Positions 5,000 through 41,867 of a stretch of 64,000 bases of DNA are shown here, piece after piece. The stretch's first letter is position 1, and every line of letters begins with the position of its first letter. This DNA is from an uncultured Chloroflexia bacterium. Its GTDB lineage: Bacteria; Chloroflexota; Limnocylindria; Limnocylindrales; CSP1-4. A program made the translations under genes and the position numbers. The stretch covers positions 4,306 to 68,305 of the forward strand of contig CAVYXU010000015.1 of NCBI GenBank assembly GCA_963772565.1, read 5' to 3'. The notes beneath the pieces were generated by a model that had not been told where the DNA came from, did not search any database, and saw only the letters and a program-made list of their open reading frames with translations.

Positions 5000-6547
5000 T
5001 CAATGGACGAACAGTATCCAAGCACCCGAATCGGGCGTCGCCACCGTTTCGGCGCTGTGCGAGCCGAGCATCACCGTGCCACCGACCTCGAGCGCGCGAT
5101 ATGCACCGACCGGGACGTCAAGACGCGAGTGCACGATGACTGAGCCTGGCCGAACGTCCGCCCCGGGCGCGAGAATGGATGGATTCATCCCGGCGACCGC
5201 CCAGAGGGGCAGGTCAAGGTCGACGGCGAGGCGCGGTCTGAGCAGGCCCGGAACGTAGAGCCACGGGGCAGCCTCGGCCGGTGCAGTCTGGCCGGCGACG
5301 AGGCCATCGGGCGCAAGGAGCGGCTCGACGATTGGCACCGCCAGATCCCCTAGGCGAGCGGTCGCCAGCTGCCCCTGCATCGCCGAGGCGACGCTTGAGC
5401 TGATCGGGGCGAATGGCGCCCCGAGGGCCGATGCCCCCACGACTACTGCCGACACGAGGGCTGCGGCCGTCATGGATGGTACCGGCCCAACCGCGCGCGT
5501 CGTCCGTGCACGCGTCACGACAGCTCGCGCGATGGCGGCAGCGCCGATCGCCGCGGCCACCGCCAGCGCAATCTCGATGCCGGCGTAGTACCGCGAGGAA
5601 ACGTATGTGCCGCGAGCCGCCAGCAGCACAAGCAACGCGCCGAGGCCCGGGCCGAGTGCGAGCAGCCCCAGGAGCAGCGGGCGGCGGTCATCCCTCCACA
5701 GTGCCCCCAGCCCAAAGAGCGCCAGGAGCACGGGAATCGGCCGTGCGACCAGGATCACCGCCCCGGCGTGGATTACTTCGCGCGGCGTGGGCACGGAAGC
5801 GGACGCGTTCGAATACGCCGCCGAGACGGACAACCAGAACCACGGGTCGCCCGTAAGCAGCCAATCATGGAGGAGCATCACGGGCAATGCCATTGCGGCC
5901 AGCCCGGTCGCAATCGCCAGGGATCGGATGCCCCAGGGCGACAGCGCGATCCTCCGTTCCGACGACCGTCGCCATCTGACGGATCGCACGATCTGGAGCA
6001 TGAGTGCCAGACCGACCATTCCGGTGACCACTACCGTCTCCAGGCGAGCCAGCGTGGCGAGCATCAGGGCGAGCCCCACGATCCAGGGACGAGGTCGCGG
6101 CCCGAGTGCGGCCAGTGCGGCGACAAGCCATCCGACGAGCGCCCAGGCCACGGGGTAGGCCAGCCCGACGTCAACCGCCAAGCGGGGCGATCCGAGCAGG
6201 ACCAGCGGTGCCGCGACGATGGCGACCCAGCGGGGCGCTCCAGCGGCGGCACGGCTGACGACGAGGACACCAAGGATCGCAGCGAGCGTAAACGCTCCGA
6301 TCGCCATGAGGCTGATCGCCCGCCAGTCCGGAACCAGGGCATGTGTCAGGCCGTAGACGAGCGTCAGCAAGGGCTTCGGCGTCGTGGTCACGAACGCCTC
6401 GAGCTGCTTGCCCGACACGATCCGGTCGAAATGGATCACCGACGCCGCGCTGTCGAAACCTACCGGCCCGACCTTGAGCGGACGGATCATGGCGACGAGC
6501 ACTGCCGATGCCGCCAGAGCACCAATCATGGCGCCCGCGAGCGTCAT
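5000..6547 (-). CDS. Polytopic membrane protein, possibly a GT-C-type glycosyltransferase.
   Basis: The ORF is about 515 aa with more than 10 hydrophobic segments. It lies divergent from the GT2/flippase-like pair. No family motif was recognised by eye, and the start is uncertain. Confidence 0.6.
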   Translation of the reverse strand: MTLAGAMIGALAASAVLVAMIRPLKVGPVGFDSAASVIHFDRIVSGKQLEAFVTTTPKPLLTLVYGLTHALVPDWRAISLMAIGAFTLAAILGVLVVSRAAAGAPRWVAIVAAPLVLLGSPRLAVDVGLAYPVAWALVGWLVAALAALGPRPRPWIVGLALMLATLARLETVVVTGMVGLALMLQIVRSVRWRRSSERRIALSPWGIRSLAIATGLAAMALPVMLLHDWLLTGDPWFWLSVSAAYSNASASVPTPREVIHAGAVILVARPIPVLLALFGLGALWRDDRRPLLLGLLALGPGLGALLVLLAARGTYVSSRYYAGIEIALAVAAAIGAAAIARAVVTRARTTRAVGPVPSMTAAALVSAVVVGASALGAPFAPISSSVASAMQGQLATARLGDLAVPIVEPLLAPDGLVAGQTAPAEAAPWLYVPGLLRPRLAVDLDLPLWAVAGMNPSILAPGADVRPGSVIVHSRLDVPVGAYRALEVGGTVMLGSHSAETVATPDSGAWILFVH

Positions 6548-20350: not shown

Positions 20351-20427
20351 GGGGGAGTAGCTCAATCGGTTAGAGCAGCGGGCTTATATCCCGCCGGTTC
20401 CAGGTTCGAGTCCTGGCTCCCCTACCA
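20351..20427 (+). tRNA. tRNA with anticodon UAU (formally tRNA-Ile reading AUA).
   Basis: A cloverleaf was folded by hand: a 7-bp acceptor stem (G1-U72 wobble plus 6 Watson-Crick pairs), D-stem GCTC/GAGC, anticodon stem GCGGG/CCCGC with loop CTTATAT (U33, anticodon TAT at 20385-20387, A37), T-stem CCAGG/CCTGG with loop TTCGAGT, discriminator A, and an encoded CCA. Confidence 0.8.
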
Positions 20428-24188: not shown

Positions 24189-27100
24189 TTGATGCCGGGC
24201 AGAGTCGTCAGCCGCCAGTTCATCGGGCGTGAGCCGGAGCTCGCGCAGATCGACGCGGCCATCGCGGCGGGTGCAAAGGGCGGGGCAGCAACCGTCGTGG
24301 TCGCCTCGAGCGCGGGCATGGGCGCCTCGCGGTTCATCGACGAGGCGCTGACACGCGCCGCGTCGGGAGCCATGCCCCCGCTCGTCATGCGCGGCCGTGC
24401 CGAAGGCCCGGTCGATTCTCCGTGGGCGGCCGTGCTCGAAGCACTGGGACCGGTGCTGTCCGTTCGCCCCCGGGAGGAGCAGCTGGCCCTCCTCCGGCGC
24501 GATCCCCGCTCAATGCTGCTCGCGCTGCCTGGTATGGCCGCGCTTGCCGCCGAGCTCCCCGCTCCTCCGGTCAGCGCGCTGGCTGACCCGGAGCGCCGGC
24601 AGCCCCGGGCTCTCGCGGCACTCCTGCGCTGGCTCGGGCGGCTTGCCCTCGAGAAACCGCTGGTCATCGTGCTCGAGGACCTGCACATCGCCGATGCCGC
24701 CACCCGGGCGTTCGCCACCTTCGTCGCGCGGATTGCCCGGGATGAGCGGCTCACGCTCATCGTCACGTACCAGCCGGACCGCATGACCCGGGAGCATCCG
24801 CTGCGCGACAACCTCGCGATCATCGAGGGCGGCCTCCGCCCGCCGGTCAACATCGAGCTCCGTCCTCTTGCGCGACGGGAGATCGCACGAATGATCGAGG
24901 GCATCGAGGGGGAGCGGCCATCGGCCTCGATCGTGGTTCTCGTCGCCGAGCGCTCGGGCGGCTCGCCGATGGTCGTCGAAGAGCTGGTCGCTGCGCGTCG
25001 GGAGATCCGCAACGTCACCCTCACCGGGACGCTTTCCGACCTCGTCGCGGCGCGACTCCAGGGGCGATCACCCGAGTGCCGGCGCGTTCTGCGGCTCATG
25101 GCGCCCGCGGAGCGCGCGATGAATCGCGGGCAGCTGGCCCTCGCCGCCGCGACGTTCGAGGCCGGGCCGCAGACCCGCCTCCCTCCGCGCTCGACATCCC
25201 TGCCACGGCGCGGAACCGCGTTGATGGATGCCGACCTGTTGGCCGGCCTGGACGAGGCGCTCGAGCACGGGTTCGTGCGCGCCGATGCCGAGGGCCGGAT
25301 GCGGATCCGTCACGAGATGGTCGCCCGCGCCGTGGTCAGCGATCTGCTGCCGACCCAGCTTCCCAGGTATCGAGCCGCGGTGGCCAGGGCGTTCGACGAC
25401 GTGCCCATCGTCGCGGCCATGCACTGGCGTGCGGCACACCGGCTGGTGGAGGCGCGCGACGCCGCCATCCGTGCCGGCCGGCTGGCGATGACCGTCGACG
25501 CGCCCCAGGATGCGCTGGCCGCGTTCGAGATCGCGCTCGAGCTCCCGCCGCCCGATGACCCCGGGGTCGCCGATGAGATGAACGTGGGTCTCCAGGACGA
25601 GGCGGCTGAGGCCGCGCTCGCCGCCCTGCGCCCGACCCGCGCGGTTGCCTACGCGGAAGCGGCGATCGGGGCACTGCGCGAGCGGAGCGATCGGGTCCGG
25701 CACGGGGTTCTCGAAGCCCGACTGGGTCGCTACCGGCTGGCCGCGGGCGATACCGCGGGTGCCACGACGGCGCTCCGGCGGGCCGCGGAGGTCGTGCCGG
25801 ATGCGCCATCGATCGAGCGCGCCCGGATCCTCGCGCTCCTTGCCCAGGAGCGGATGATCGCGGGCGCGTTCCGCGACGCCGAGCGCGCCGCAACCGGGGC
25901 GCTCGTGATCACCGAAGGTCTCGGACCCTCGGCCGAGCCCGAGGCGATCCACGCCATGACGACGCTCGCGGTCGTCAAGGGCTGGAGCGACGATCCGGAG
26001 TCGGCGCTGCCGATCCTCGAGCAGGCGGTCGAGCGCTCCCGCGCCCTCGGCCTGGTCGAGGAATGGTGGCGGGCCGGGGCGAACATGGCCGTCGTCCTGG
26101 AGCTGCTCGGGCGCCAGCAGGAGGCGATCGACGTTGCCTTCCGCGACATGGAGGAGGCGCGCGCCAACGACCTCGACGCGATCTACGGCAACCTGCTCGG
26201 TGGCAACGTCGCCGGGCTCCTGGTCGACGTCGGGCGCTGGCAGGAGGCGCGCGAGCTCAGCCTCCGTGCGCTCGACTGGAGTCCCGCGGGCGTGCCGTTC
26301 GTCAACGCGCTGATCAACCTCGTGCTCGTCGAGATCGAGTCGGAGGCCGGCGAAGAAGCCGGCCGGCTGCTTGGCCGGATCCTGGTGGAGCTCGAGACGG
26401 GCGGCGATCTCCAGTTTGCCGTCCCTGCCTACCAGGCGACCGCCTCGTACGCGATGTGGAGCGGCGACCTGGCCGACGCCCGACGCGCGATCGAGCGCGG
26501 CTGGGCACGCCTGCGCGGGTCCGAGGACTGGGTTCTGGTCGCGCGCATGGCGGCGACGGCGCTCGAGGTCGAGTCCGCGATCGTCACCGCCGCGCTCGAG
26601 AAGCGCCGGATCGCGGACGTGGCCGCCTCGCGGGAGCGCGCGGGCCGGATGCTGGCCGAGGCGGAGGCAGCGGTCGCGCGGGCCGGCCTGGAGTCACCGG
26701 CGACCGCCGGTCGCGAGCCCGGTACCAGCCTGGCAACGGCGCGCGCCTTCTACGAACGGCTTCACGGTCGGGATGATCCGTCGCACTGGGCAAGCCTGGC
26801 GGAGCGATGGCACGAGCTCGGCGATCCGTACCGCGAGGCGCGCGCCCTGTGGCGCCAGGCGGAGGCGAACCTGAACCTGGCCATCGCCGGCAGGGCGGCG
26901 GGGACCCGGGTCAGGACGGACGCCCGCCTCGCGCGTGCCGAGGCACGGGATCCGCTGATCCGGGCGGTCGAGCTTGCGATGGGCCTCCACGCGCGGCCGC
27001 TGCTGCGGGCGCTCCGGGACCTGGGGGGCCGCGCCCTGATCACGCTGCCGCCTGAGGTCGATGCGCTGCTCGAGGAGCCCGTGCCGGCGCCCGCAGAGCC

Positions 27101-27413
27101 GCGGGCGTCGGTTTCGCCGGGCCCTGTCGTCCAGGCATCGGGACCCCCGCCGGTGCCAGTCCCCGCCGGCTTGCGACCCGCCACCGGCGGGGACACGTTC
27201 GGGCTCTCGCGCCGGGAGCTCGAGGTGCTCGCGCTGATCGCGAAGGGTCGGACGAACCGCGAGATCGGCGACCGCCTGTTCATCAGCCAGAAGACCGTGG
27301 GCGTCCACGTCGGAAACATCCTGGCCAAGCTCGGCGTGTCGGGCCGCGTCGAGGCCGCGGCGGTCGCGATCCGGCTGGGTCTCGAGGAGGAGGCGGCGGC
27401 GCGGCGCCGTTGA
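24189..27413 (+). CDS. Large ATP-dependent LuxR-family regulator (LAL/MalT-like: AAA+ NTPase, TPR, C-terminal LuxR HTH).
   Basis: The N-terminal P-loop region is VVVASSAGMGASRF and the Walker B is LVIVLEDLHIAD. There is a long helical repeat region and a C-terminal LSRRELEVLALIAKGRTNREIGDRLFISQKTVGVHVGNILAKLGV. Confidence 0.85.
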   Translation: MMPGRVVSRQFIGREPELAQIDAAIAAGAKGGAATVVVASSAGMGASRFIDEALTRAASGAMPPLVMRGRAEGPVDSPWAAVLEALGPVLSVRPREEQLALLRRDPRSMLLALPGMAALAAELPAPPVSALADPERRQPRALAALLRWLGRLALEKPLVIVLEDLHIADAATRAFATFVARIARDERLTLIVTYQPDRMTREHPLRDNLAIIEGGLRPPVNIELRPLARREIARMIEGIEGERPSASIVVLVAERSGGSPMVVEELVAARREIRNVTLTGTLSDLVAARLQGRSPECRRVLRLMAPAERAMNRGQLALAAATFEAGPQTRLPPRSTSLPRRGTALMDADLLAGLDEALEHGFVRADAEGRMRIRHEMVARAVVSDLLPTQLPRYRAAVARAFDDVPIVAAMHWRAAHRLVEARDAAIRAGRLAMTVDAPQDALAAFEIALELPPPDDPGVADEMNVGLQDEAAEAALAALRPTRAVAYAEAAIGALRERSDRVRHGVLEARLGRYRLAAGDTAGATTALRRAAEVVPDAPSIERARILALLAQERMIAGAFRDAERAATGALVITEGLGPSAEPEAIHAMTTLAVVKGWSDDPESALPILEQAVERSRALGLVEEWWRAGANMAVVLELLGRQQEAIDVAFRDMEEARANDLDAIYGNLLGGNVAGLLVDVGRWQEARELSLRALDWSPAGVPFVNALINLVLVEIESEAGEEAGRLLGRILVELETGGDLQFAVPAYQATASYAMWSGDLADARRAIERGWARLRGSEDWVLVARMAATALEVESAIVTAALEKRRIADVAASRERAGRMLAEAEAAVARAGLESPATAGREPGTSLATARAFYERLHGRDDPSHWASLAERWHELGDPYREARALWRQAEANLNLAIAGRAAGTRVRTDARLARAEARDPLIRAVELAMGLHARPLLRALRDLGGRALITLPPEVDALLEEPVPAPAEPRASVSPGPVVQASGPPPVPVPAGLRPATGGDTFGLSRRELEVLALIAKGRTNREIGDRLFISQKTVGVHVGNILAKLGVSGRVEAAAVAIRLGLEEEAAARRR

Positions 27414-27462
27414 GCGGGCCACGATCGCGCCGCGGCGCCGTTGAGCGGGCCACGACCGCGCC
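27401..27462 (+). repeat. Direct tandem duplication of 31 nt (1 mismatch) spanning the LuxR stop codon.
   Basis: gcggcgccgttgagcgggccacgatcgcgcc is followed by gcggcgccgttgagcgggccacgaccgcgcc. Confidence 0.85.
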
Positions 27463-27575
27463 GCGATGCCGCAGATCGGGGCGCGACTGCGGCGCGGAGG
27501 AACCGCCGGCGGACGCATCTCTCGCGGGCATTGGGTAGGATCGGGCCGTTCCGCGCCGCCCCGATCGAGGTTTAC

Positions 27576-28061
27576 ATGCGCCGTCTTCTCCTTGGAACCG
27601 CGCTCGTCGCGCTCACCCTTGCCGCCGCCGCCTGTGCGACCGCAAGCCCCGGCTGGACCTATGCCGCGCCGACGGAGGCACCGCCGTCGCAGCCGGCCGC
27701 CTCGAGCGACGCATCGACCGCCCCTTCAGAGGCGCCGGCCTCGGCCGCCCCAACGGAAGCGGCCTCCGCGGGCACTGGCGGCGCGACCGTCCAGATCTCC
27801 GCGTTCAACATCGCGTTCGAGCAGAGCGACGTCAGCGCACCGGCCGGCGCGCCGTTCGTGATCCACTTCGACAACAAGGACGCGAGCGTGCCGCACGACA
27901 TCGCGATCAAGGACGCCAGCGGTACGCAGGTGTTCAAGGGCGACGTCGTCACCGGGCCCGCCGAGACCGACTACAACGTGCCCGCCCTGCCGGCCGGCAC
28001 CTACCAGTTCATGTGCACGATCCATCCGAACATGACCGGCACGCTCACGGTGGGCGGCTGA
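27576..28061 (+). CDS. Cupredoxin (blue-copper, plastocyanin/pseudoazurin-like) lipoprotein.
   Basis: The start is MRRLLLGTALVALTLAAAAC, a lipobox. The T1 copper ligands are in canonical spacing: H in VPHD, and C, H, M in YQFMCTIHPNMTG. Confidence 0.8.
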   Translation: MRRLLLGTALVALTLAAAACATASPGWTYAAPTEAPPSQPAASSDASTAPSEAPASAAPTEAASAGTGGATVQISAFNIAFEQSDVSAPAGAPFVIHFDNKDASVPHDIAIKDASGTQVFKGDVVTGPAETDYNVPALPAGTYQFMCTIHPNMTGTLTVGG

Positions 28062-28071
28062 GGTCCCCGGT

Positions 28072-28824
28072 GTGACGCCGCGGGTCGACGAGGTCTGCTA
28101 CCGCGACGCCTATCTCCGTACGCTCGAGTCGCGGGTCCTCGAGGTTGCCGGTGCCGACGGACCGCCCATGGTCGTGCTGGAGGCGACGGCGTTCTATCCG
28201 GGTGGCGGCGGCCAGCCATCGGACCGAGGCACCATCCTGCGCGCCGGCGATGGCCGATCCTGGGTCGTCCGGACGGCCAGGCGAGTGGGCGGCGAGATCG
28301 TGCACGAGCTGGAGCCGCCCGAGGATGGCGAGCTGCCACACGCGGGCGATCGGGTCACCGTCGACGTCGAGTGGGCACGCCGGTACGCGCTGATGCGGAC
28401 GCACACGGCACTGCATGCGCTGTGTGGTGTCGTCTGGCGCGACTACGGGGCGCTGGTGACCGGCGGCAACATGGAACCGGGCTCGGGCCGGATGGACTTC
28501 GAGTTCGAGCGGATGTCGGGCGACCTGGTCGAGGACATCGAGGCGAAGGTCAACGCGGAGCTTGTGGCTGCCCACGATGTCCGCGTCAACGTGCTGCCGC
28601 GCGACCAGGCGTTCGCGATCCCCGACCTGATCCGGACGAAGGTGAACCTTCTGCCCCCGGGGATCGAGCAGATTCGGACGATCGAGATCGTCGGGCTTGA
28701 CCTGCAGGCCGACGGGGGCACGCACGTCGCGAACACCCGCGAGGTGGGCGGGATCAGGGTCACGGGCTACGAGTCCAAGGGCCGGATCAACAAGCGGGTC
28801 CGGGTCGCGCTGGTCGACGCATGA
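28072..28824 (+). CDS. AlaX-like Ala-tRNA editing protein (threonyl/alanyl-tRNA synthetase second additional domain).
   Basis: The zinc motif HTALHALCGVV (HxxxH...C) and a later GGTH are present. Confidence 0.8.
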   Translation: MTPRVDEVCYRDAYLRTLESRVLEVAGADGPPMVVLEATAFYPGGGGQPSDRGTILRAGDGRSWVVRTARRVGGEIVHELEPPEDGELPHAGDRVTVDVEWARRYALMRTHTALHALCGVVWRDYGALVTGGNMEPGSGRMDFEFERMSGDLVEDIEAKVNAELVAAHDVRVNVLPRDQAFAIPDLIRTKVNLLPPGIEQIRTIEIVGLDLQADGGTHVANTREVGGIRVTGYESKGRINKRVRVALVDA

Positions 28825-28908: not shown

Positions 28909-30282
28909 CTACCCGACGTCGACCTTCTGGGCCGTCATCAGGCCGTTGTTGGAGAAGATGAACCCCCGCACGTGGTTGAAATACGCGGTGCTTGCGACGG
29001 ACGGGCGGTTGCCGGTGATCGAGACGTTGGAGGCCGGGCGCGACGAGCTGTAGCCGTCAACGCGGACCCGGCCCTTGTCCATGATGTTGTTGCGGATGAC
29101 GATGTTCGTGGGCTGGACGTCCACCTTGGCCGGCGTGAGCACGACCGCATAGCCCTCGCCGGAGGGCGTATGCCCGTAGTCGAAGTTACGCAGGACACAG
29201 CCCTCGACGACGATGTTCTTGAGCACATCGCTCGAGCGGTTGGGCTCCCCGTCGATCGCGTGGAGCGCGGCGTGGTTGATCGACACCCCGCTGATCGTCG
29301 CGCCGTTGACTGAGATCAGGCCGATCCCGTTGCGGCCGATGACGTCCATCTTGACGTTTGCGATCAGCACCCCGGTTGTCGGTCCGTCGACACCCGAGGC
29401 GTTGCGCGGGCGCAGGTCGACGCCGTCGCCCCATGTGCCATGGATCGTGGCGTTGCGGAGGGTGAAGCCGGACGTCGTCTCCACCGAGAAGGCCGCCTGG
29501 TCCTGCCGATCGTCGCTACCGAACACCCGGTTCTGCACGTTGGCCAGCGTGGCCGGTCCGGTGATGTTGAGGCCGTCGACGACGATGTTCTTGCCCTGCA
29601 CGATCCTGAGGTGGGAGGACTGGCTGGTCGAGGCCGTGTAGCGCTTGAACGTCGCGCCGTGGCCGTAGATGGTGCCGGTCCAGCCGACGAGCTCGATCCG
29701 GCCGTCAACGCGGTAGACGGCGCCCGATGCGAAGCACACCCGCTTGCCGGCGTTCGCCCGGAGGAAGCTGGCGATCGCGCTGGACTGATCGCTCGTCTTG
29801 GAGGGTGCCTGGGCGAACGTCGCGTCGCACCCGGTCGCGGGCTTGGGCGTCGGTGCGGGCGTGAGCCGGGGGGTCGGCTTCGGGGTGGGCGTTGGCCTGC
29901 CCGTGGGCGTCGGCTTCGTCGTCGGCGTCCCGATGGCCCTGGGGGTGGGCGTCGCTGCGTCGGCCGGCGCCGTCGTCGGGTCGCCGGCCGGGATCGCCAC
30001 CGTCGAGGTGGGTGTCGGATCTGCGATCGCCGGCAGGGTCGGCGCGGGCACAATGGTCGCGAACGGCAGCGCCGAGACCGCGGTGCTCGGTGGGGTTGGC
30101 GTCTGCCCGGCGCGATCCGGCATGGATGCGTCGCACCCAGCGACGAGCGGGACGCCGAGGAGGAGGCCCGCGAGGAGCAGCGCGCCCACAGAGAGCCGGC
30201 CATCGGGCCGGCGAGGGGACTTCGGGGGCGGCGTGAGGGTCTGGTCGGTCCGCCGGAATTCGTCTACGGCCATGCGAAACAC
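28909..30282 (-). CDS. Lipoprotein with a right-handed parallel beta-helix (pectate-lyase-like) domain and a PT-rich linker.
   Basis: The signal/lipobox is LLLGVPLVAGC. The linker is [30 protein letters not shown]. Repetitive ..NIV..G..I.N.. beta-helix rungs follow. Confidence 0.7.
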   Translation of the reverse strand: MFRMAVDEFRRTDQTLTPPPKSPRRPDGRLSVGALLLAGLLLGVPLVAGCDASMPDRAGQTPTPPSTAVSALPFATIVPAPTLPAIADPTPTSTVAIPAGDPTTAPADAATPTPRAIGTPTTKPTPTGRPTPTPKPTPRLTPAPTPKPATGCDATFAQAPSKTSDQSSAIASFLRANAGKRVCFASGAVYRVDGRIELVGWTGTIYGHGATFKRYTASTSQSSHLRIVQGKNIVVDGLNITGPATLANVQNRVFGSDDRQDQAAFSVETTSGFTLRNATIHGTWGDGVDLRPRNASGVDGPTTGVLIANVKMDVIGRNGIGLISVNGATISGVSINHAALHAIDGEPNRSSDVLKNIVVEGCVLRNFDYGHTPSGEGYAVVLTPAKVDVQPTNIVIRNNIMDKGRVRVDGYSSSRPASNVSITGNRPSVASTAYFNHVRGFIFSNNGLMTAQKVDVG

Positions 30283-34215: not shown

Positions 34216-34649
34216 CAAGGCCGTCGCCACCCGCGGCATGGACGCCGGGAGAGCTGCCCTCCAGGATGGGTCGACGAAGGAGGTGCAGCATGGCGATCAC
34301 CACTGCAACCCGTCACGGCCACGCATCCACGACGGCTCGCCCATGAGCTCGGGCGCAGTCGACGCGGACCTCTTCGGCCCCGGAACGCGCGTCCCCCCTG
34401 CGAGCGTTCGCACGCGACGCCGCGCTCGGCGCTGACCCCAGCCGCTCTGGGCTGTCACCAGCTCGCGTTGCCGCGGGGTCCGTCGGACAAGGACCCGGGC
34501 GCGGCGTCGCGACGACGCCTGCCCGAAACGAGATCAAACCTGATCCACGTGCCAGGCGCGCCTGTCCGCCCGGCCCTGCGCACGGGTCCGACATGTCCGG
34601 CATCGCCGCCGTTCGGGATCCCGGGCGCGACCGTTCTCAAGGAGATGAC

Positions 34650-35063
34650 ATGAGCTATCAGATTGGACGCTCATCGCTCACGGAAGATCATGCAGCCGGG
34701 TCAACGACCCGCGAATCGCTGCGCCGGGTCGATACGGAGGAGATTGTCACCACGCGACCGGCGGGGATCACGGTTGCCGCCCGGCTGGTGACCCTGCTGT
34801 TCGGCCTCGTCCAGCTCGTGATCGCGCTGCGCATCGTCCTGCTCGCGTTCGACGCGCGCCAGGGGAACGACATCGTGACCACGATCATGACCATCAGCGG
34901 CGTGTTCGTCGCTCCGTTCGAAGGCGTCCTCCAAACGGACGCGATGTCCGCGAGCGGCGCCGTCCTCGACATCGCCGCCGTGGTGGCCCTCGTGGGCTGG
35001 ACCATCGTGGAGCTGATCGCGCTCCAGGTGATCCGCATCGGCAGTGTCAGGCCGGACGCATAG
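34650..35063 (+). CDS. Small integral membrane protein, hypothetical.
   Basis: GGAGA lies 5 nt upstream of the ATG at 34650 (MSYQIGRSS). There are two to three TM helices. Confidence 0.6.
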   Translation: MSYQIGRSSLTEDHAAGSTTRESLRRVDTEEIVTTRPAGITVAARLVTLLFGLVQLVIALRIVLLAFDARQGNDIVTTIMTISGVFVAPFEGVLQTDAMSASGAVLDIAAVVALVGWTIVELIALQVIRIGSVRPDA

Positions 35064-35074
35064 CGCACCCGTCG

Positions 35075-35623
35075 TCAGGGCAGCCACCGGACGATCCACG
35101 CGGTCGTCCGGGCCGGCTCCCAGGCGCGACCCGAACCCGGGGCAGGTCCGACGACGTTGATCCACGCCTGCGCGCCGGAGCCCAGGGACACCACCGCGCT
35201 GCCCAGCGGCTGGGCGTCGGCGATCGTTGCCGCGGGGCACGCGACGTCGTCATTGCACAGGAGGCTGGGCGAGACGGCGATGCGCGTCACGGGACCATCG
35301 GCGGTCGTCAGCGTCGCGATCGACGCCCGGGCAACCTGACCGCACGTCACCTGATCCAGGCCGCGGCACACGATGGCGTCCTGCGCGGGCATGCCGGGCG
35401 CGATGACAGGTGTGCTGGTCGCATGCGCAATCTGGGTCGGCAGCGATCCGGCCTGCGGCGCGGCATCGACCGCGAGCGCTAAGGGTGAGCCGTCGGGCGG
35501 CGTCGCGGGAGTGTCCGCCATCACCAGGGCGAACGCGACGATGGCGATCGCCCCGCCCGCCACCCCCACAGCCCGGCGCCATCCACGCTGCCGGAGCGGC
35601 TGGGGCGCGACATCGAATTCCAT
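35075..35623 (-). CDS. Membrane-anchored extracytoplasmic Cys-containing protein, hypothetical, likely co-transcribed with the sigma/anti-sigma pair.
   Basis: The start is MEFDVAPQPL.... One TM helix (AIAIVAFALVMA) is present with four Cys in the soluble part. It begins 16 bp downstream of the anti-sigma stop. Confidence 0.5.
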   Translation of the reverse strand: MEFDVAPQPLRQRGWRRAVGVAGGAIAIVAFALVMADTPATPPDGSPLALAVDAAPQAGSLPTQIAHATSTPVIAPGMPAQDAIVCRGLDQVTCGQVARASIATLTTADGPVTRIAVSPSLLCNDDVACPAATIADAQPLGSAVVSLGSGAQAWINVVGPAPGSGRAWEPARTTAWIVRWLP

Positions 35624-35713
35624 GCGGATCGTGGTCCAGCATAGCGAGTGGTCTCGCCGGGGAGCCCTGCCCGTGACCGGCGATCTGTGCGCCCCCAACT
35701 GACCAACGGAGGA

Positions 35714-36634
35714 TCAGCTCCCGATCGTCAGCGTTGCCCGGACGTCCGGGTGCTTCGGGTCGACAATCGTATAGCTGCCGTCGGGCAGCGCGTCGATCGA
35801 GTACCGGATCGTCGCCGGCCCGGTGATCGAGTTCTGCTCCCACGCGTAGTCGCCGTTGGCGAACAGGATCCGGATCCCATGCTCGACCCCTGGATCGTTG
35901 TTGACGAGCTCGATCGAGAACCGGCGCCCGCCGGCGAATGAGACCGCGTCGGGAGAGAAGCCCGTGGCCGACACCGTGAGCATGATGTCCTGCGGGGGCA
36001 GGGTCTCCTCGGGCGCCGCCGATGGAGGTGGCGGTGCGCTCTGTCCAACGTGGAGCGTCCCGGTCATCAGCGGATGCACGGGGTCCGTGAACGCATGGGT
36101 CCCGGCTGCCAGCGCCGGGATGCCGTACGTGCGCTGGGCCGGCCCGACGAAGATCGTGCCACTGAACACGACCGTGCCGGCGGCATCGCTGATGTCGAGG
36201 CCGTGGGGCACGGCCTCCTTGCTGTCCAGCAGGATCGTGATCGCGGTGTCGGCCGGCCAGTAGAGATCGGTCTGGTCGAAGACGACGTTGTCGGCCGTCA
36301 GCACCAGCGTGCCGCGCGGTCCGGGCGACGTCGACGCGGCCGGGGCAGCCGACGACGGTGCAGGGGAGACCGACGGGCCGCCGACGACGGCCGGCGCGTC
36401 CCGACCGGCGAGCCAGCTCGCGGCGACGAGCGCGACGGCTGCCATCACCACCACGGCGGCGAGCCGCCCCAGCCCCACCGTCGGGCGAACGCCGCCGATC
36501 CCCGGGAACCGCCTGCGCTGCGCCGTCCGGACCACCTCAGCCTCGATCGACGCGACCAGGCGCCCCGGGGCGTCGTCCGGGCCGGGGCGCAGCCACGCGG
36601 CGAGGACCTCGTCGATGTCACGGTCTGCGCTCAT
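35714..36634 (-). CDS. Membrane-spanning anti-sigma factor whose extracytoplasmic part is two cupredoxin-like domains lacking the Cys ligand.
   Basis: The ATG overlaps the sigma stop (ATGA at 36631-36634). The short cytoplasmic N-terminus is MSADRDIDEVLAAWLRPGP.... The TM helix is LAAVVVMAAVALVAASWLA. Domain 1 (LVLTADNVVFDQTDL...VPHGLDI...HAFTDPVHPLMTGTLHVG) aligns to the cupredoxin at 27576-28061, with C replaced by T. Confidence 0.7.
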   Translation of the reverse strand: MSADRDIDEVLAAWLRPGPDDAPGRLVASIEAEVVRTAQRRRFPGIGGVRPTVGLGRLAAVVVMAAVALVAASWLAGRDAPAVVGGPSVSPAPSSAAPAASTSPGPRGTLVLTADNVVFDQTDLYWPADTAITILLDSKEAVPHGLDISDAAGTVVFSGTIFVGPAQRTYGIPALAAGTHAFTDPVHPLMTGTLHVGQSAPPPPSAAPEETLPPQDIMLTVSATGFSPDAVSFAGGRRFSIELVNNDPGVEHGIRILFANGDYAWEQNSITGPATIRYSIDALPDGSYTIVDPKHPDVRATLTIGS

Positions 36635-37269
36635 GCGGAAGTACCCCTCGCTGCGATGCTGCGCGCGTCGGCGTCGAGTGCTGCGCGCATCACCCGATGT
36701 GCGTGGTGGAGTCGCGATCGGACGGTGCCGTCCGGGATCCCGAGGATCTCCGCGATCTCGGCCGTCTCGTGGCCCGCGTAGTGGCGCAGCACCAGCAGCG
36801 CCCGCTGCTCGGGCGTCAGTCGCCGGAAGGCGCGGTCGAGCTCGTCGCGCTGGGCGATCCCGAGGTACTCATCCCGCCCGACGGCGATGTCAACCGGCAG
36901 CTCGACGAGGCTGGTCACGTGCCGTCGCACCCGCTTCGCGTCGGCGATGCAGGCATGAACGACGAGCCGGTGGAGCCAGGCATCGAAGCGATCGGGATCC
37001 CGCAGGGACGGGAGATCTCGCCAGGCCGCCACGAGCGCCTCCTGGACCGCGTCCTCCGCCCGGTCGACGTCGCGCAGGATGCGCTCGGCGATCGCGAACA
37101 GGCGCCCCACCCGCGGGCGCAGGAGCTCCGAGTACGCCCGACGGTCGCCGTTGCGAGCCGCCTCGACAAGGTCGCGATCCACGGTCCACCAGCTGCCGGC
37201 GTCCAGCGGGGACGCCACTCCAGACGCTATGGGTGTCGGCAGGTAATCCGTGTTCAATCCCGGCATCAT
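36631..37269 (-). CDS. ECF (sigma-70 family group IV) RNA polymerase sigma factor.
   Basis: Region 2 is AARNGDRRAYSELLRPRVGRLFAIAERILRDVDRAEDAVQEALVAAWRDLPSLRDPDRFDAWLHRL. Region 4 is LTPEQRALLVLRHYAGHETAEIAEILGIPDGTVRSRLHHA. The upstream 335 aa of the ORF are rejected. Confidence 0.85.
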   Translation of the reverse strand: MMPGLNTDYLPTPIASGVASPLDAGSWWTVDRDLVEAARNGDRRAYSELLRPRVGRLFAIAERILRDVDRAEDAVQEALVAAWRDLPSLRDPDRFDAWLHRLVVHACIADAKRVRRHVTSLVELPVDIAVGRDEYLGIAQRDELDRAFRRLTPEQRALLVLRHYAGHETAEIAEILGIPDGTVRSRLHHAHRVMRAALDADARSIAARGTSA

Positions 37270-37275
37270 TCGTGG

Positions 37276-39039
37276 ATGCCAGACCTCGACCACGCGCTTG
37301 CCGCGCTCGACGACAGATTCCGCCGCCTCCGCGATGAGGCGCACATCCCCGGCGTGGCCTGGGGGGTCGTCGCCGGCGGCGCGCTGGTCCACACCGGCGG
37401 TGCCGGGACGATTCGCGACGGCGAGGATCAGCGTCCCGATGCGGACTCCGTGTACCGGATCGCATCGATGACGAAGAGCTTCACGGCCGCGACGCTGATC
37501 CTGCTGCGCGACGAGGGTCGCCTCGGGCTCGACGTGCCGGTGGCCAGGTACGTGCCGGAGCTCGCCGGCTGGCGGCCCACGACGGCGGACAGCCCGCCGA
37601 TCACCGTTCGGCAACTGATGACGATGTCGGGCGGCCTGCCCACCGACGATCCGTGGGGCGACCGGCAGCAGGGCCTCGACCTCGGTCGGTTCGCCGCGCT
37701 GCTCGCCGCCGGACCGTCCTTTGCATGGCCCCCAGGCGTCACCTTCGAGTACAGCAACCTGGGCTACGGAATCCTCGGGCGCGTGATCACCAACGTCGCC
37801 GGCCGCGAGTATCGCGAGATGGTCCGCGACCGGCTGCTGGTACCGCTGGGGATGACCTCGACGGCGTACCTCGATACGGACGTCGCACAGGCCGACCTTG
37901 CGCACGGCTACGTCCGTCGGGACGAGGCGTACGTGCGCGAGGGCACGGACGGGTACGGCGCGCTGGCGTCGATGGGCGGCGTGTTCTCGACGGTGCGCGA
38001 CCTGTCGCGCTGGGTGCTCGAGTTCCTGGACGCGTTTCCGGCGCGCGACGACCCGGAAGGCGATCACCCGCTGCGACGATCGTCGCGACGCGAGATGCAG
38101 CAGGTGCAGCGCGCCATCGGCCCGATGGTGCTTGCGCACGCGCCGGACGCCGAGCCATCGTTCACCGCTGGCGGCTACGGCTTCGGGCTGTTCGTTGGCC
38201 AGGACCCGGAGCTGGGCTCGATCATCAGCCACGCCGGCGGCTACCCGGGCTTCGGCACCCACATGGCCTGGCACCCGGCGACGGGGCTGGGTGTGATCGG
38301 GCTGGGCAACCTGCGTTACGCACCGGTCAGGCCCGTGGTCAAGGAGGTCCTCGAGGACCTGGTTCGCGCGAAGGTTGCACCCCGCCGCCGCATCATCGTC
38401 ATGCCTGCAGTCGACCGGTTTCGCCCGGTGGCGGAGCAGCTCATCAATGTCTGGGACGATGCGCTCGCGGATACGTCGTTCGCCGGCAACATGGACCTCG
38501 ACGAGCCCCGTGAGATCCGCCGGGCGTCGGTCGCGAAGGTCCGTGAACAGCTGGGTCCGTTCCGGCGTGACGAGACGCGGCCCACGACCTCGGACTCACC
38601 GGCCGATGTGGCCTGGTGGCTGCGCGGAGCCAACGGCTGGTTGCGTGTGTCGATCCTCGTGAGCCCGGAGCCGACCCCGCGCCTGCAGCGACTCGCACTG
38701 CGTCCGGTCGGGGACCCGTCGGCCGAGATTCGTTCGCTGGCCGAACGGGTCGTTGCCCTGACCGGCGCCCAGGACCCCGCCTGGCCGGCAGACCTTCCGC
38801 TGGGCGAGGGGCAGGATCGCGAGGCCCTGGAGCGAGCGGTGCGTGCTGCCGGCCCACGGTTGGGCGTGCTGCGCCTGAGTGACCCGATCGACGGCGACGG
38901 CCGCACGACCAGCACGTTCGAGCTCCACGGCGAGCGCGGCATGGCCGAGCTCAAGCTCACTCTGGAACCCGGCACGGCCGCGCTGTCGACCGTCTCGCTC
39001 CAGCTGCCCCAGCGGAACCCGTTGCCCGAGGCCTGGTAG
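37276..39039 (+). CDS. Beta-lactamase-family serine hydrolase with a C-terminal extension.
   Basis: The SxxK motif is in YRIASMTKSF. The YSN element is in TFEYSNLGY, and a G-x-G stretch is in SHAGGYPGFGTH. The ATG is at 37276, only 6 nt from the annotated sigma start codon. Confidence 0.85.
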   Translation: MPDLDHALAALDDRFRRLRDEAHIPGVAWGVVAGGALVHTGGAGTIRDGEDQRPDADSVYRIASMTKSFTAATLILLRDEGRLGLDVPVARYVPELAGWRPTTADSPPITVRQLMTMSGGLPTDDPWGDRQQGLDLGRFAALLAAGPSFAWPPGVTFEYSNLGYGILGRVITNVAGREYREMVRDRLLVPLGMTSTAYLDTDVAQADLAHGYVRRDEAYVREGTDGYGALASMGGVFSTVRDLSRWVLEFLDAFPARDDPEGDHPLRRSSRREMQQVQRAIGPMVLAHAPDAEPSFTAGGYGFGLFVGQDPELGSIISHAGGYPGFGTHMAWHPATGLGVIGLGNLRYAPVRPVVKEVLEDLVRAKVAPRRRIIVMPAVDRFRPVAEQLINVWDDALADTSFAGNMDLDEPREIRRASVAKVREQLGPFRRDETRPTTSDSPADVAWWLRGANGWLRVSILVSPEPTPRLQRLALRPVGDPSAEIRSLAERVVALTGAQDPAWPADLPLGEGQDREALERAVRAAGPRLGVLRLSDPIDGDGRTTSTFELHGERGMAELKLTLEPGTAALSTVSLQLPQRNPLPEAW

Positions 39040-39050
39040 CGCGGCGCGGG

Positions 39051-39992
39051 TCAGGCTTCGGGCGTGCCCGGCGGCAGGTCGAACAGCGACGGGTCGGCCT
39101 GATGAGCGCGAAGGAGCGTGAAGATGAAGCCCATCCGCTCCCGGTAGGACTCCCAGTCAGGCGCATCGCTCTCGGCGGCGGAGTCCATGTCCTGGCCGAA
39201 CCTGGCCGCCAGGGCGATGGCGTCGGGGTCGCCGAGCCGGACGAGCTCCGGTGGGAACATCGCGCCGCCAAGGTACGCGGGCGCCGGGATGTCCCGGTTG
39301 AGCTCGAGCGTTCCTTCGGGGATCCGGATGCCGAGGTGGCTGGTGGCCGCGATCGCCGTGATCCAGCGGCCCGGGATCGCCTTCCGCACGAACGGATCCG
39401 CCACCAGCTGCTCGTGAGCGCCCACCGAGACGTTCGCGACGAGGATCCGTTGTGCGCGCCTGACAGAGCTTGCTCGGTCGTCCGCGCGCCGCAGGAGCAT
39501 CGAGTCCACGTACGCCGTGAACGCCCTTGCCAGGTCCTCGCTGGCCGCAACCTGAGGATCGGCGAGCACGGTGTCAAGTCCGCGCCTCGCGGCGCCATCG
39601 TCGACGAGCACGGCGCGGAACCCGGCAAACGCGCGGACGAAGCGGATGAACGGCGGGGCGACGTCCCCGAAGATCGTCGCATTGCCGGCCGCGACGGCCT
39701 CCGCGACCTCGGCACCGAAGAACGGCCGGAGGGCAGCGGGCACGGCCTCGCCATCGATCGAACGGCGCGCCTCGGCGCTCGCCCACTGGCCGTAGGTCAG
39801 CCAGTTCGCCTGGTCGCGGCCGATGATCGCGGCCACCGCCTCTGACAGCGCGTGGTAGCCGCGCGTGATCGCGGCGTTACGGACGAGGGGGTCCGCGATC
39901 CGGACGACTCGCGCGATCAGCCCCAGGTCGAGGTACGGAGTCCCGAGAGGATCGGGCGTGGCGCTGGTCACGTCTCGGGCCGTCAGGTCCAA
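39051..39992 (-). CDS. Hypothetical protein.
   Basis: A 313-aa ORF of non-repetitive composition. No motif is recognised. Confidence 0.55.
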   Translation of the reverse strand: MDLTARDVTSATPDPLGTPYLDLGLIARVVRIADPLVRNAAITRGYHALSEAVAAIIGRDQANWLTYGQWASAEARRSIDGEAVPAALRPFFGAEVAEAVAAGNATIFGDVAPPFIRFVRAFAGFRAVLVDDGAARRGLDTVLADPQVAASEDLARAFTAYVDSMLLRRADDRASSVRRAQRILVANVSVGAHEQLVADPFVRKAIPGRWITAIAATSHLGIRIPEGTLELNRDIPAPAYLGGAMFPPELVRLGDPDAIALAARFGQDMDSAAESDAPDWESYRERMGFIFTLLRAHQADPSLFDLPPGTPEA

Positions 39993-40597
39993 AGGTCCGG
40001 GGCCCGCACCGACGCCCCGATGGCCGCTGCCAGGCGTTCGACAACCGAGAACCAGTCGAACCGGCTGGTGACCTCGGACGCCCGGAGCGTCACGAGCCGG
40101 GCGGGCGCGACCAGCGTCGGCAGCACCGTGTCCAGGATTGCCTCCACCTCGTCCCGGAATGCGTCGCTGGTCGACCGCACGCCGTCGGCCTGGAGCGCGA
40201 CGTCCGGCAGCAGGCGCACGACCAGGTCGTAGGTCTCGGACCAGCGCCGGACCAGCGGCTCGACGTGGAACTCGTCACCGCCGCCGCAGGCACGCAGGTA
40301 GTACGCGTAGTTGTCCATCACGCCGCGATCCGTAGCCAGGATGTCGGCCTTGCGCGTCAGCTCCAGCTCCTGGCGGATCTGCGACACGAGGACCCACAGC
40401 TGCGCCTCGCCGGTGGCGCCTTCGTTGATCCCCAGCGGGTTGTCGCGCACGACCTCGCGACCCAGCTCGACGGAGCGTCCCGCGCGCTGGACCTCCGCCG
40501 CGAAGGCCAGCAGCGCGGACGTCTTGCGGATCCCATGAGAGCCGATGAACGCGATCTTTGCGGGGCGGGGCCAGGCGGGGGGTCGTCGTCGGGGCAT
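39983..40597 (-). CDS. P-loop NTPase (AAA-domain / NadR-like kinase family).
   Basis: The Walker A is IAFIGSHGIRKTSA and the Walker B-like stretch is LATDRG. Confidence 0.6.
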   Translation of the reverse strand: MPRRRPPAWPRPAKIAFIGSHGIRKTSALLAFAAEVQRAGRSVELGREVVRDNPLGINEGATGEAQLWVLVSQIRQELELTRKADILATDRGVMDNYAYYLRACGGGDEFHVEPLVRRWSETYDLVVRLLPDVALQADGVRSTSDAFRDEVEAILDTVLPTLVAPARLVTLRASEVTSRFDWFSVVERLAAAIGASVRAPDLWT

Positions 40598-40675
40598 CGC
40601 CTACAGGGTATGGCCGCGCGGCGCCCGGCGCCGGCCCATGGGGCGGGGCGCCCCCGGACCGGTGCGGCCGGGGGC

Positions 40676-41867
40676 TCAGCCCGGGATCTGGCCGAGGGTG
40701 ACCTGCACGGTCACCTGGCTGCCGGCCGACTTCATCACCACCACGGGCACCGTCTGCCCCGGCTCGAGGCCCGCGAGCACCACCGACAGGGTATTGCTGT
40801 CCGGCGTCGGCTTGGAATCGATGCTCACGATCAGCTCGCCCGTCTGGATGCCGGCCACGGCGGCCGGCCCGCCGGCGTCGATGCCGTAGACCAGGACGCC
40901 CTGAGCTCCCATCACGTTCGCGGCGCGGATCCCGAGGTAGGCACGATGCGAGCTGGTCACCTTGCCCGAGGCGATCAGCTGTCCCGCGAAGTCCTTCGCG
41001 TCGTTGCTCGGGATCGCGAACCCGATGCCCGGCGCCGACCCTCCGATCTGCTGATCCACGGCGGCGAGTGTCGGGATCCCGACGACATCGCCGTGGATGT
41101 CGACCAGCGCCCCCCCGCTGTTGCCGGGGTTGATCGCAGCGCTGGTCTGAATCGTGCCGGGCAGGGTCACGCCACCGGGCTCGGTCACGGTACGGCCGAG
41201 CGCGCTGACGATGCCCTGGGTGACGCTGGTCTGGAGGCCGAGCGGGTTGCCGACCGCCATCACGATCTGGCCGACCCGGAGCATCGCCGAAATCGGCGAA
41301 CGTCGCCGGCTGCAGACCGGTCGCGTGGATCGACAGCACGGCGATGTCATTCGCCGCGAAGGTGCCGACGAGCGTCCCGGTGAACTGGCGGCCGTCGGCG
41401 AGGGTGACGTTGAAGGTGCTGGCTCCGCCGACCACGTGTGCGTTGGTCACGATGTCGCCGTTGGCGTCGAGCACGATCCCCGATCCGAGGCCGAGCGGCG
41501 TCTGGATCACGACGACGGAGGGGGAGACCCGCTGCACGACAGACTCGTAGTCCTGCTGCAGCTGCGCGAGGGCGTTGCCGTCGCCCGGCAGACCCGACGT
41601 GGAGCCCACACCCGGTGTCGCGCTCGGTGCGGCGGGGACGCTCGTGGGAGCGGACCCTGGCGTGGAGACGGCAGCGGAGGCCGGGGCCGTCGTCGAGGCC
41701 GGGGCCGACCCGCAGGCCGCGACGATCAGCAGGGTTGCCGCCAGCCAGCCAAGCAGCCTGCGGGGCGGCCGAGCGCCCGCAGGGCGATGTGGTGTCGAGG
41801 ACGTGGGGACGCGCGCGCGGCCGCGACGCGTCGGCAGGGTCATGGTCTGCATCTGCACTCCGATCAC
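40676..41867 (-). pseudogene. htrA: HtrA/DegP-type trypsin-like serine protease with PDZ domain, interrupted by a single frameshift near 41285.
   Basis: The N-terminal half (signal anchor, then [29 protein letters not shown] with His, and the Asp region NDIAVLSI) is in one frame to ..ATFADF. The remainder is in another frame: [28 protein letters not shown] with Ser, and the PDZ domain. Confidence 0.7.

Follow-up and report, generated by a model that had tools for sequence, protein, structure and literature searches.

Pairs of extracytoplasmic function (ECF) sigma factors and anti-sigma factors represent one of the main signaling mechanisms of bacteria, and for most ECF groups the input signal is obscure. 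Cupredoxins with a type-1 blue copper site use a His-Cys-His-(Met) ligand set in which the Cys thiolate is essential. The metal-responsive ECF systems that have been reviewed are the FecI-type, CnrYXH, CarQ/CarR and CorE systems, none of which has a cupredoxin (PMC6851896, PMC10141476), and the known sensors are of different kinds, namely TonB receptors, CnrX and Cys-rich extensions of the sigma factor. The cytoplasmic domain of CnrY is of class II and consists of ~45 residues forming two helices (PMC6851896). As for cupredoxins that lack the Cys ligand, the engineered C112D and 'type zero' azurins, which carry Asp instead of Cys and retain both His, still bind Cu(II) (Lancaster et al., 2009, PMC2841405, as cited in PMC11966278), and the N-terminal domains of FtrB and EfeO are natural Cys-less cupredoxins that bind Cu2+ at non-classical sites (PMC11966278). 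Herein we describe a locus at positions 35075-37269 of a 64-kb stretch of contig CAVYXU010000015.1 (the window, by which we mean the whole of that stretch), in which an ECF sigma gene is followed by a gene for a putative anti-sigma factor with two cupredoxin domains that have Asp in place of the ligand Cys. We tentatively propose that these form an autoregulated ECF sigma/single-pass anti-sigma pair with metal occupancy of the Asp-cupredoxins as the input, a reading that we favor and yet would place slightly short of probable.

The minus strand of the region contains three genes arranged head to tail, encoding the sigma factor, the putative anti-sigma factor and a four-Cys protein. The sigma gene (36631-37182, minus strand) encodes a protein of 183 residues that has no regions other than sigma-2 and sigma-4, as expected of an ECF (group 4) factor, and that matches Pfam Sigma70_r2, Sigma70_r4_2 and Sigma70_ECF as well as the NCBIfam superfamily model TIGR02937 (71.5 bits; cutoff 42.9), while none of the specific NCBIfam equivalog models reaches its own cutoff. 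These matches uphold the ECF assignment made in an earlier reading of the same DNA from its letters and open reading frames (the sequence-only reading). The stop codon of the sigma gene and the start codon of the next gene share ATGA at 36631-36634, as that reading had also recognized. It had placed the sigma start at an ATG at 37269, and this probably does not hold, because an open reading frame from that position would overlap a conserved promoter-like motif (37228-37256) and because the sequence GTGGA at the downstream GTG (37182) is common to all four orthologous loci compared. The 29-codon extension between the two candidate starts also has an atypical codon-position GC pattern, and GTG 37182 is most likely the true start. 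The orthologous sigma factors at the related loci L001, L002, L003 and L006 are 74-80% identical to the one in the window.

The second gene (35714-36634) encodes a Cys-free protein of 306 residues with one hydrophobic helix. Its cytoplasmic N-terminal module (residues 1-45; 36500-36634, minus strand) is predicted by AlphaFold2 (AF2) to contain two helices (residues 2-15 and 23-40) and carries the motif D-x-L-A-A-W-L-R-P-G-P-x-D-A-P ... T-x-Q-R-R, after which come a single transmembrane helix (residues 54-77 in the AF2 model; 36404-36475, minus strand; hydropathy maximum 2.47 at residues 58-76) and a disordered linker rich in Pro, Ser and Ala (residues 78-105; predicted local distance difference test, pLDDT, <50). 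With six Arg residues before the transmembrane helix and one after it, the N-terminus is assigned to the inside and the C-terminus to the outside. The short cytoplasmic segment and the single helix proposed earlier are therefore present as a head of ~45 residues and a helix at ~54-77; the domains beyond them, which had been termed periplasmic, do belong to the outward-facing part, and since a relative is from an uncultured member of the Chloroflexia the term extracytoplasmic is more fitting.

Class I anti-sigma domains, which are of the zf-HC2 or RskA type, have four helices in about 80-90 residues, and the present protein, with two helices in only ~45 cytoplasmic residues, is not of that class. 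A two-helix segment of ~45 residues joined to a single transmembrane helix is the anatomy of class II, a resemblance in form only, and no sequence similarity between the N-terminal module and CnrY was detected. Likewise, searches of the N-terminus against Pfam, NCBIfam and PDB profiles at E values up to 10 gave no match to a known anti-sigma domain family. The gene does have the position typical of an anti-sigma gene across the related loci, in that a sigma gene lies immediately upstream at every locus open to checking. The two genes overlap by 4 bp in the window and at L001, L003 and L004, and they are simply adjacent in L002 and L006. The module itself is retained in the related proteins P0002, P0006 and P0122 and in the L002 open reading frame at 33-44% identity while the ectodomains diverge, and in L010 (two pairs) and L011 it comes right behind ECF sigma genes, joined there to unrelated C-terminal parts. 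Ordinary membrane-bound cupredoxins lack the module and have different anchors, either multiple transmembrane segments or a lipoprotein anchor. A version of the module with the sequence MTDDRSLERAARSWLEAGPTxAPDRAVEAALLRIETTPQERD followed by a transmembrane helix was observed at L010:2744-3357 and 5513-6357 and at L011:435-1412 and 3001-3327, and related metagenome assemblies encode many proteins that carry it, time and again beside ECF sigma genes and with unrelated C-termini that mostly have no annotated domain. The N-terminal module has the appearance of an uncurated family of anti-sigma domains with an expansion in those related genomes, and the case for the 306-residue protein as an anti-sigma factor is circumstantial but consistent.

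The extracytoplasmic region consists of domain A (residues 107-197; 36044-36316, minus strand), recognized by BLASTP, alignment with amicyanin and AF2, and domain B (residues 214-305; 35720-35995, minus strand), recognized by PF13473, BLASTP and AF2. Both are predicted to adopt the Greek-key beta-sandwich of the cupredoxins. In the AF2 model, which was built on a 68-sequence alignment, the two domains are all-beta with pLDDT values of 95-98 (A) and 93-97 (B), and the highest-ranking Foldseek matches, NirK and small laccases, belong to the two-domain cupredoxin proteins (E about 1e-10). The Pfam model PF13473 (Cupredoxin_1) matches two stretches of the protein (43.2 bits against a cutoff of 27, E 4e-11), the best of which is residues 214-304 of domain B, and amicyanin is among the top PDB sequence matches of the ectodomain (E about 0.1-0.3). 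The window also encodes a lipoprotein-type blue-copper paralog (27576-28061, plus strand; Pfam PF13473 and Copper-bind) with an intact site consisting of H107, C147, H150 and M153. By BLASTP, domain A is 48% identical to this paralog over 90 residues (E 8e-25) and domain B is 34% identical over 89 residues (E 3e-14). Hence, with PF13473 above its cutoff and a pLDDT of about 95, the sequence-only reading was correct both in seeing two domains of cupredoxin fold and in likening the first of them to the blue-copper lipoprotein.

The positions that correspond to the copper ligands are H144, D184, H187 and M190 in domain A and H252, D292, H295 and V298 in domain B. Three independent alignments, by BLASTP, by HMMER against amicyanin and by MAFFT across 239 domains, agree that the Cys position is D184 in FTDPVHPLM and D292 in IVDPKHPDV. 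The replacement of Cys by Thr that had been suggested for domain A must be corrected to Asp, as T183 is the adjacent residue, whereas the loss of both Cys and Met from domain B had been seen accurately. With Asp at the Cys position, neither domain has the His-Cys-His-Met set of a type-1 site. Both His are retained in both domains and Met is retained in domain A, its place being taken by Val in domain B. The domains were previously described as degenerate, which is apt for the loss of Cys and not for the site as a whole: with both His kept, the resulting His2-Asp(-Met) site is potentially metal-competent rather than plainly degenerate.

This substitution is a property of a family and not of one protein. 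An exhaustive HMMER search of 1.84 billion representative proteins yielded 1210 matches. Nearly all of them are ordinary cupredoxins in which the Cys is present, some being lipoproteins and others membrane-anchored proteins of two or three domains. The Cys-less clade has about seven members, the window protein, P0002 (with three domains), P0003, P0006, P0010, P0012 and P0017. The 239 aligned domains comprise 13 from this family and 226 from outside it, and in all 226 of the latter the N-terminal His, the Cys, the C-terminal His and the Met are each present. In the family, the Cys position is Asp in 13/13 domains, the N-terminal His is retained in 12/13, the C-terminal His in 11/13 and the Met in 5/13. 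The neighboring residues differ as well. The first His is followed by Gly in 12 of the 13 family domains as opposed to Asn or Asp in 210 of the 226 others, and the Asp is followed by Pro in 11 of the 13, giving the signature H-G ... D-P-x-H-P. Because the Asp is invariant and its neighbors have changed in a coordinated manner across members that are only about 40% identical, the site looks like one that has been rebuilt rather than one that has randomly decayed.

The family is also rare. A scan of 185,579 species genomes gave one family locus, in an uncultured Chloroflexia metagenome-assembled genome, and the JGI metagenomes gave one locus, a fragment. Full-text literature searches did not find a description of any anti-sigma factor whose ectodomain is a cupredoxin or plastocyanin. 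The architecture is accordingly not a standard annotated one, as had been stated earlier, since homologs are not commonly annotated with the domain, and the family is seldom seen in databases. The sequence-only reading had named three ways in which it could fail, the lack of a cupredoxin match, the lack of a transmembrane helix and the existence of commonly annotated homologs, and none of these was found.

A distant relative combines the same module with an intact site. P0122 (203 residues; L004:3007-3618) has the same N-terminal module and transmembrane helix followed by a single cupredoxin with a complete His/Cys/His/Met set, and its gene overlaps by 4 bp an ECF sigma gene whose product is 55% identical to the sigma factor of the window. 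P0122 is therefore a candidate anti-sigma factor with a bona fide blue-copper ectodomain, and the combination of an intact site with the same module indicates that the ectodomains of this anti-sigma lineage include intact as well as Asp-substituted cupredoxins. In a neighbor-joining tree of the 239 domains (94 columns, without support values; a rough guide only) domain B forms a separate clade. The tree does not show a local duplication, by which domain A would have been copied directly from the lipoprotein gene nearby: domain A falls inside the lipoprotein-type clade, and the neighboring gene is not its sister. The nearest relatives of both domains are classical Cys-containing cupredoxins and they are not of the EfeO (Cup-I) or FtrB (Cup-II) type. 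The anti-sigma protein has no NCBIfam EfeO match, and efeUOB and ftrABCD genes are not found nearby.

Upstream of the sigma gene is an ECF-type promoter-like motif, TGAAC-N17-ACCCATAG (37228-37256, minus strand), that recurs in front of four orthologous sigma genes and may function as a promoter. The pattern GAAC-N17-19-CCCATA occurs once in the 64-kb window compared with 0.08 occurrences expected by chance, and L001, L002 and L003 each contain one copy, in every case a short distance in front of the orthologous sigma gene. Autoregulated ECF genes are preceded by an AAC-containing -35 element, and this motif, conserved in four loci and found once in the window, is a candidate for such an element. 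It lies in the 93-bp intergenic region between the sigma start at 37182 and the start of a divergent beta-lactamase-like gene (37276-39039, plus strand), with 20 nt between the motif and the latter's start codon. When the window and the related loci were searched for further copies with exact and relaxed patterns, the only match that precedes a gene was the one upstream of each sigma gene. A scan of 34500-37500 for sigma-70 promoters and intrinsic terminators gave no match, which says little at a GC content of 71%. Within the predicted 5' leader, which runs from the promoter to the sigma start, there is a small GC hairpin, GGCGTCC-CCGCT-GGACGCC (37198-37216, minus strand), for which the RNAalifold consensus of four orthologous leaders has weak covariation (2/12 pairs compensatory, with an unfavorable covariation term).

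We envisage that at rest the two-helix head of ~45 residues would sequester the sigma factor at the membrane while the two cupredoxin domains, of the classical amicyanin/plastocyanin type, would project outside of the cell. With Asp instead of Cys the site would no longer be a fast blue-copper electron carrier, and by analogy with C112D azurin the His2-carboxylate set (with Met in domain A) should still bind Cu(II) or another divalent metal. Metal occupancy would then act on the ectodomain, by changing its conformation or by opening it to proteolysis, and the sigma factor would be released to transcribe from TGAAC-N17-ACCCATAG. Its targets would be its own operon, leading to amplification, and, in this genome, the gene for the downstream four-Cys membrane protein. 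The Asp-for-Cys ectodomain suggests, and does not prove, the sensing of copper or another metal, and the metal would probably be Cu(II). That a natural carboxylate-for-thiolate ('C112D-like') classical cupredoxin is the direct extracytoplasmic Cu(II) receptor of the anti-sigma factor is a more specific proposal and one that we consider rather unlikely. If true, it would be the first ECF pathway to sense extracellular copper through a cupredoxin and the first case in which nature has a match for the type-2/'type zero' sites engineered into azurin, with an evolutionary series leading from an intact blue-copper anti-sigma factor (P0122) to the Asp form.

The third gene (35075-35623, minus strand) encodes a single-pass membrane protein of 182 residues with an extracytoplasmic domain of ~100 residues and Cys residues C86, C94, C123 and C129. 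It begins at ATG 35623, 90 bp after the stop codon of the anti-sigma gene, and eight of eight homologs begin with MEFDV or MDFDV. The protein of 183 residues previously placed 16 bp downstream needs revision on both counts, since the ATG gives 182 residues and a gap of 90 bp, and a TTG at 16 bp would give 207 residues and five Cys. The four Cys are invariant in the eight homologs and the gene is coding-like, with a GC content at third codon positions (GC3) of 0.86. The protein has no Pfam or NCBIfam match, its AF2 model has a pLDDT of 52, and Foldseek gave no match at E <0.4. The four-Cys gene is absent from downstream of the pair in L001 and L002, and in L007 and L008 it directly follows the beta-lactamase-like gene without the sigma/anti-sigma pair, the gene order otherwise being that of the window. 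For these reasons it is not a conserved operon member: the four-Cys membrane protein earlier described as co-transcribed does follow the pair here and does not do so in L001 and L002. In all three genomes that have the gene at this position it is located behind the ECF-type promoter region, which makes it a candidate target of the sigma factor, and it may be such a target in the sub-lineage represented by the window, L007 and L008.

The history of the locus was traced by comparing the intergenic regions of L007 (5860-6034) and L008 (5875-6058) with window positions 35600-35740 and 37150-37300. Both intergenic regions keep the -35 region of the window, GGGATTGAACGCGGATTGCC, followed by a degenerate -10 region. 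L007 has a tandem duplication of ACCCACGGCG at the expected -10 position. A segment of about 1.56 kb is peculiar to the window and is bounded by the similar short sequences CTGCCGACA and CGCCGGTCA, which suggests a deletion by microhomology. By shared markers L007 and L008 are the closest relatives of the window: PntB is 95.6% identical to that of the window in L007, 96.2% in L008 and 93.4% in L002, and the AlaX-like protein is 92% identical in L008 and 87% in L002, and was not found in the stretch of L007 examined. L002 is a more distant relative and yet has the pair in the same syntenic slot, and L001 has the pair too; its deletion from the lineage of L007 and L008 is the simplest reading. 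At L002 (5500-6060) both genes carry a frameshift, a 1-nt deletion near the 3' end of the sigma gene and a shift in the linker of the anti-sigma gene, and gene calls there give a 313-residue 'sigma' protein and a 185-residue cupredoxin fragment. These frameshifts could represent real decay or indels of a long-read assembly.

The blue-copper lipoprotein gene is part of a conserved trio that also encodes an AAA_16/LuxR-type regulator (1074 residues) and a protein with an AlaX-like tRNA-editing domain. The three genes stay side by side in all of the related genomes examined (window 24189-28824, plus strand; L001:9322-13236; L002:7812-12475), and the trio is separated from the sigma/anti-sigma pair by about 1-3 kb in L001 and L002 and by about 7.7 kb in the window. 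Compared with L002, the window has a variable block between the trio and the pair that includes genes for a beta-helix protein, a Peptidase_S10 and a YGGT-like protein; the first of these (28909-30282, minus strand) is a secreted or anchored protein of 457 residues with a long Pro/Thr-rich linker and a weak match to right-handed beta-helices. Genes for an HtrA-like Trypsin-PDZ protease and an AAA_28 protein (window 39983-41350, minus strand; L002:3043-4910) are located a few kb from the sigma gene in the window, L002, L007 and L008. The HtrA-like protein could be a candidate site-1 protease, and its gene is not conserved beside the pair in L001 or L003. The window further contains a tRNA-Ile gene (20351-20427, plus strand) with the anticodon UAU (TAT in DNA), which is uncommon in bacteria as AUA is usually read by a lysidine-modified CAU tRNA.

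Several of our results weigh against the sensing of metal by this pair. The term anti-sigma is based on position, topology and a recurring N-terminal module in a protein without a match to any known anti-sigma family. One His per domain is replaced in P0006, by Leu in domain A and by Asp in domain B, and in P0010, by Asn in domain B; these are the two most divergent members of the family, and given these losses and the retention of Met in only five domains, a complete metal site is not universal. Genes for CopA, CopC/D or multicopper oxidases are not in the operon or nearby in the window, L001 or L002, and a second copy of the promoter was not found within 64 kb. In addition, the fact that the pair is missing in L007 and L008 and frameshifted in L002 means that it is dispensable. 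The same incomplete ligand positions in P0006 and P0010, together with the loss of Met from 8/13 domains, would fit a true sigma/anti-sigma pair in which the Asp-cupredoxins bind no metal and are protein-binding modules or the substrate of a site-1 protease, an explanation that we regard as possible and at the same time doubtful. Cupredoxins carry a well-known hydrophobic docking patch, the intact paralog is a conserved neighbor, an HtrA-like Trypsin-PDZ gene is near the pair in the window and in L002, and metal-homeostasis genes are not linked to it. In a variant of this explanation, the domains could mimic the blue-copper lipoprotein and dock to its membrane redox partner or maturation machinery, such that the system monitors that partner or the integrity of the envelope. 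However, the presence of Asp in all 13 domains, the near-invariant His and the coordinated H-G and D-P-x-H-P changes exceed what docking would need, and the HtrA neighbor is not maintained in L001 or L003.

It is improbable, in our view, that the 306-residue protein is a membrane-anchored effector, for the binding and buffering of Cu(II) or for non-blue copper redox chemistry, that is only co-transcribed with and regulated by the sigma factor. The lack of homology to curated anti-sigma domains would be explained in this way and many relatives are indeed plain membrane-anchored multi-cupredoxin proteins, but these have other anchors and no module, while the module is conserved at 33-44% identity next to diverging ectodomains and recurs after ECF sigma genes with unrelated C-termini. 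Translational coupling through the 4-bp overlap, seen at four loci (window, L001, L003 and L004), also speaks against an effector. The deletion of the pair in L007 and L008, the two frameshifts in L002 and the extreme rarity of the family could alternatively mean that the locus is in decay, with an anti-sigma factor that once depended on copper, lost its Cys and is drifting to loss with no current sensing. We give this very little credence: the reading frames in the window are intact and strongly coding-like (GC3 0.90), promoter and start codon show conservation, the frameshifts of L002 may stem from indels in a long-read assembly, and the same Asp in 13/13 domains among members that are only about 40% identical is indicative of purifying selection.

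If metal binding by an autoregulated sigma/anti-sigma pair proves to be true, the locus would represent a new and compact module for the sensing of copper or another metal in monoderm-type envelopes, a natural test case for the re-tuning of cupredoxin sites, and a small orthogonal set of sigma factor, anti-sigma factor and promoter (TGAAC-N17-ACCCATAG) for synthetic biology. An electron-transfer fold would have become a receptor by one invariant exchange of Cys for Asp, the same exchange as in the engineered non-blue sites of azurin, and the locus would provide an example of a sensor recruited from the lipoprotein-type blue-copper family that is encoded nearby. Both the architecture and the invariance of the Asp come as a surprise and lend themselves to direct tests, and this is to be weighed with the inferred nature of the function and the dispensability of the pair in sister genomes.

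Among the systems already described, CnrH/CnrY/CnrX of Cupriavidus metallidurans (ECF20, nickel/cobalt) is similar to the pair proposed here in that a metal signal from the outside passes through a single-pass anti-sigma factor within an autoregulated operon. They differ in phylum and metal, and the Cnr sensor is the separate four-helix protein CnrX whereas the putative sensor in the window is a cupredoxin fused to the anti-sigma factor. CorE (ECF44) and CarQ/CarR of Myxococcus xanthus are copper-responsive ECF systems (PMC6851896, PMC3107203), but, unlike the window pair, CorE itself binds copper by way of a Cys-rich extension in the cytoplasm and works without an anti-sigma factor, the anti-sigma factor CarR is a multi-pass protein that lacks a cupredoxin, and neither system uses an extracytoplasmic cupredoxin. 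The same receptor logic is seen with RsiV and sigma-V of Bacillus subtilis, where the ectodomain of a single-pass anti-sigma factor binds the inducing ligand and thereby triggers its own removal (PMC4183432), although the ligand in that case is lysozyme, and the ectodomain fold and anti-sigma class differ from those of the window protein. As for the cupredoxins, the C112D azurin is a laboratory mutant of an electron carrier, in contrast to the exchange in the window protein, which is natural, invariant within the family, accompanied by second-sphere changes (H-G, D-P) and found in a putative signaling protein. FtrB (Cup-II) and EfeO (Cup-I) are likewise Cys-less and are covered by the same broad Pfam model as the window domains, but they are soluble components of Fe2+ uptake with a three-sheet topology, while the window domains are closest to the classical Cup-III type and are attached to an anti-sigma module. 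The sigma/anti-sigma logic of this locus is standard, and what is new is a putative cupredoxin sensor in this role together with a classical cupredoxin in which Cys has been naturally replaced by Asp.

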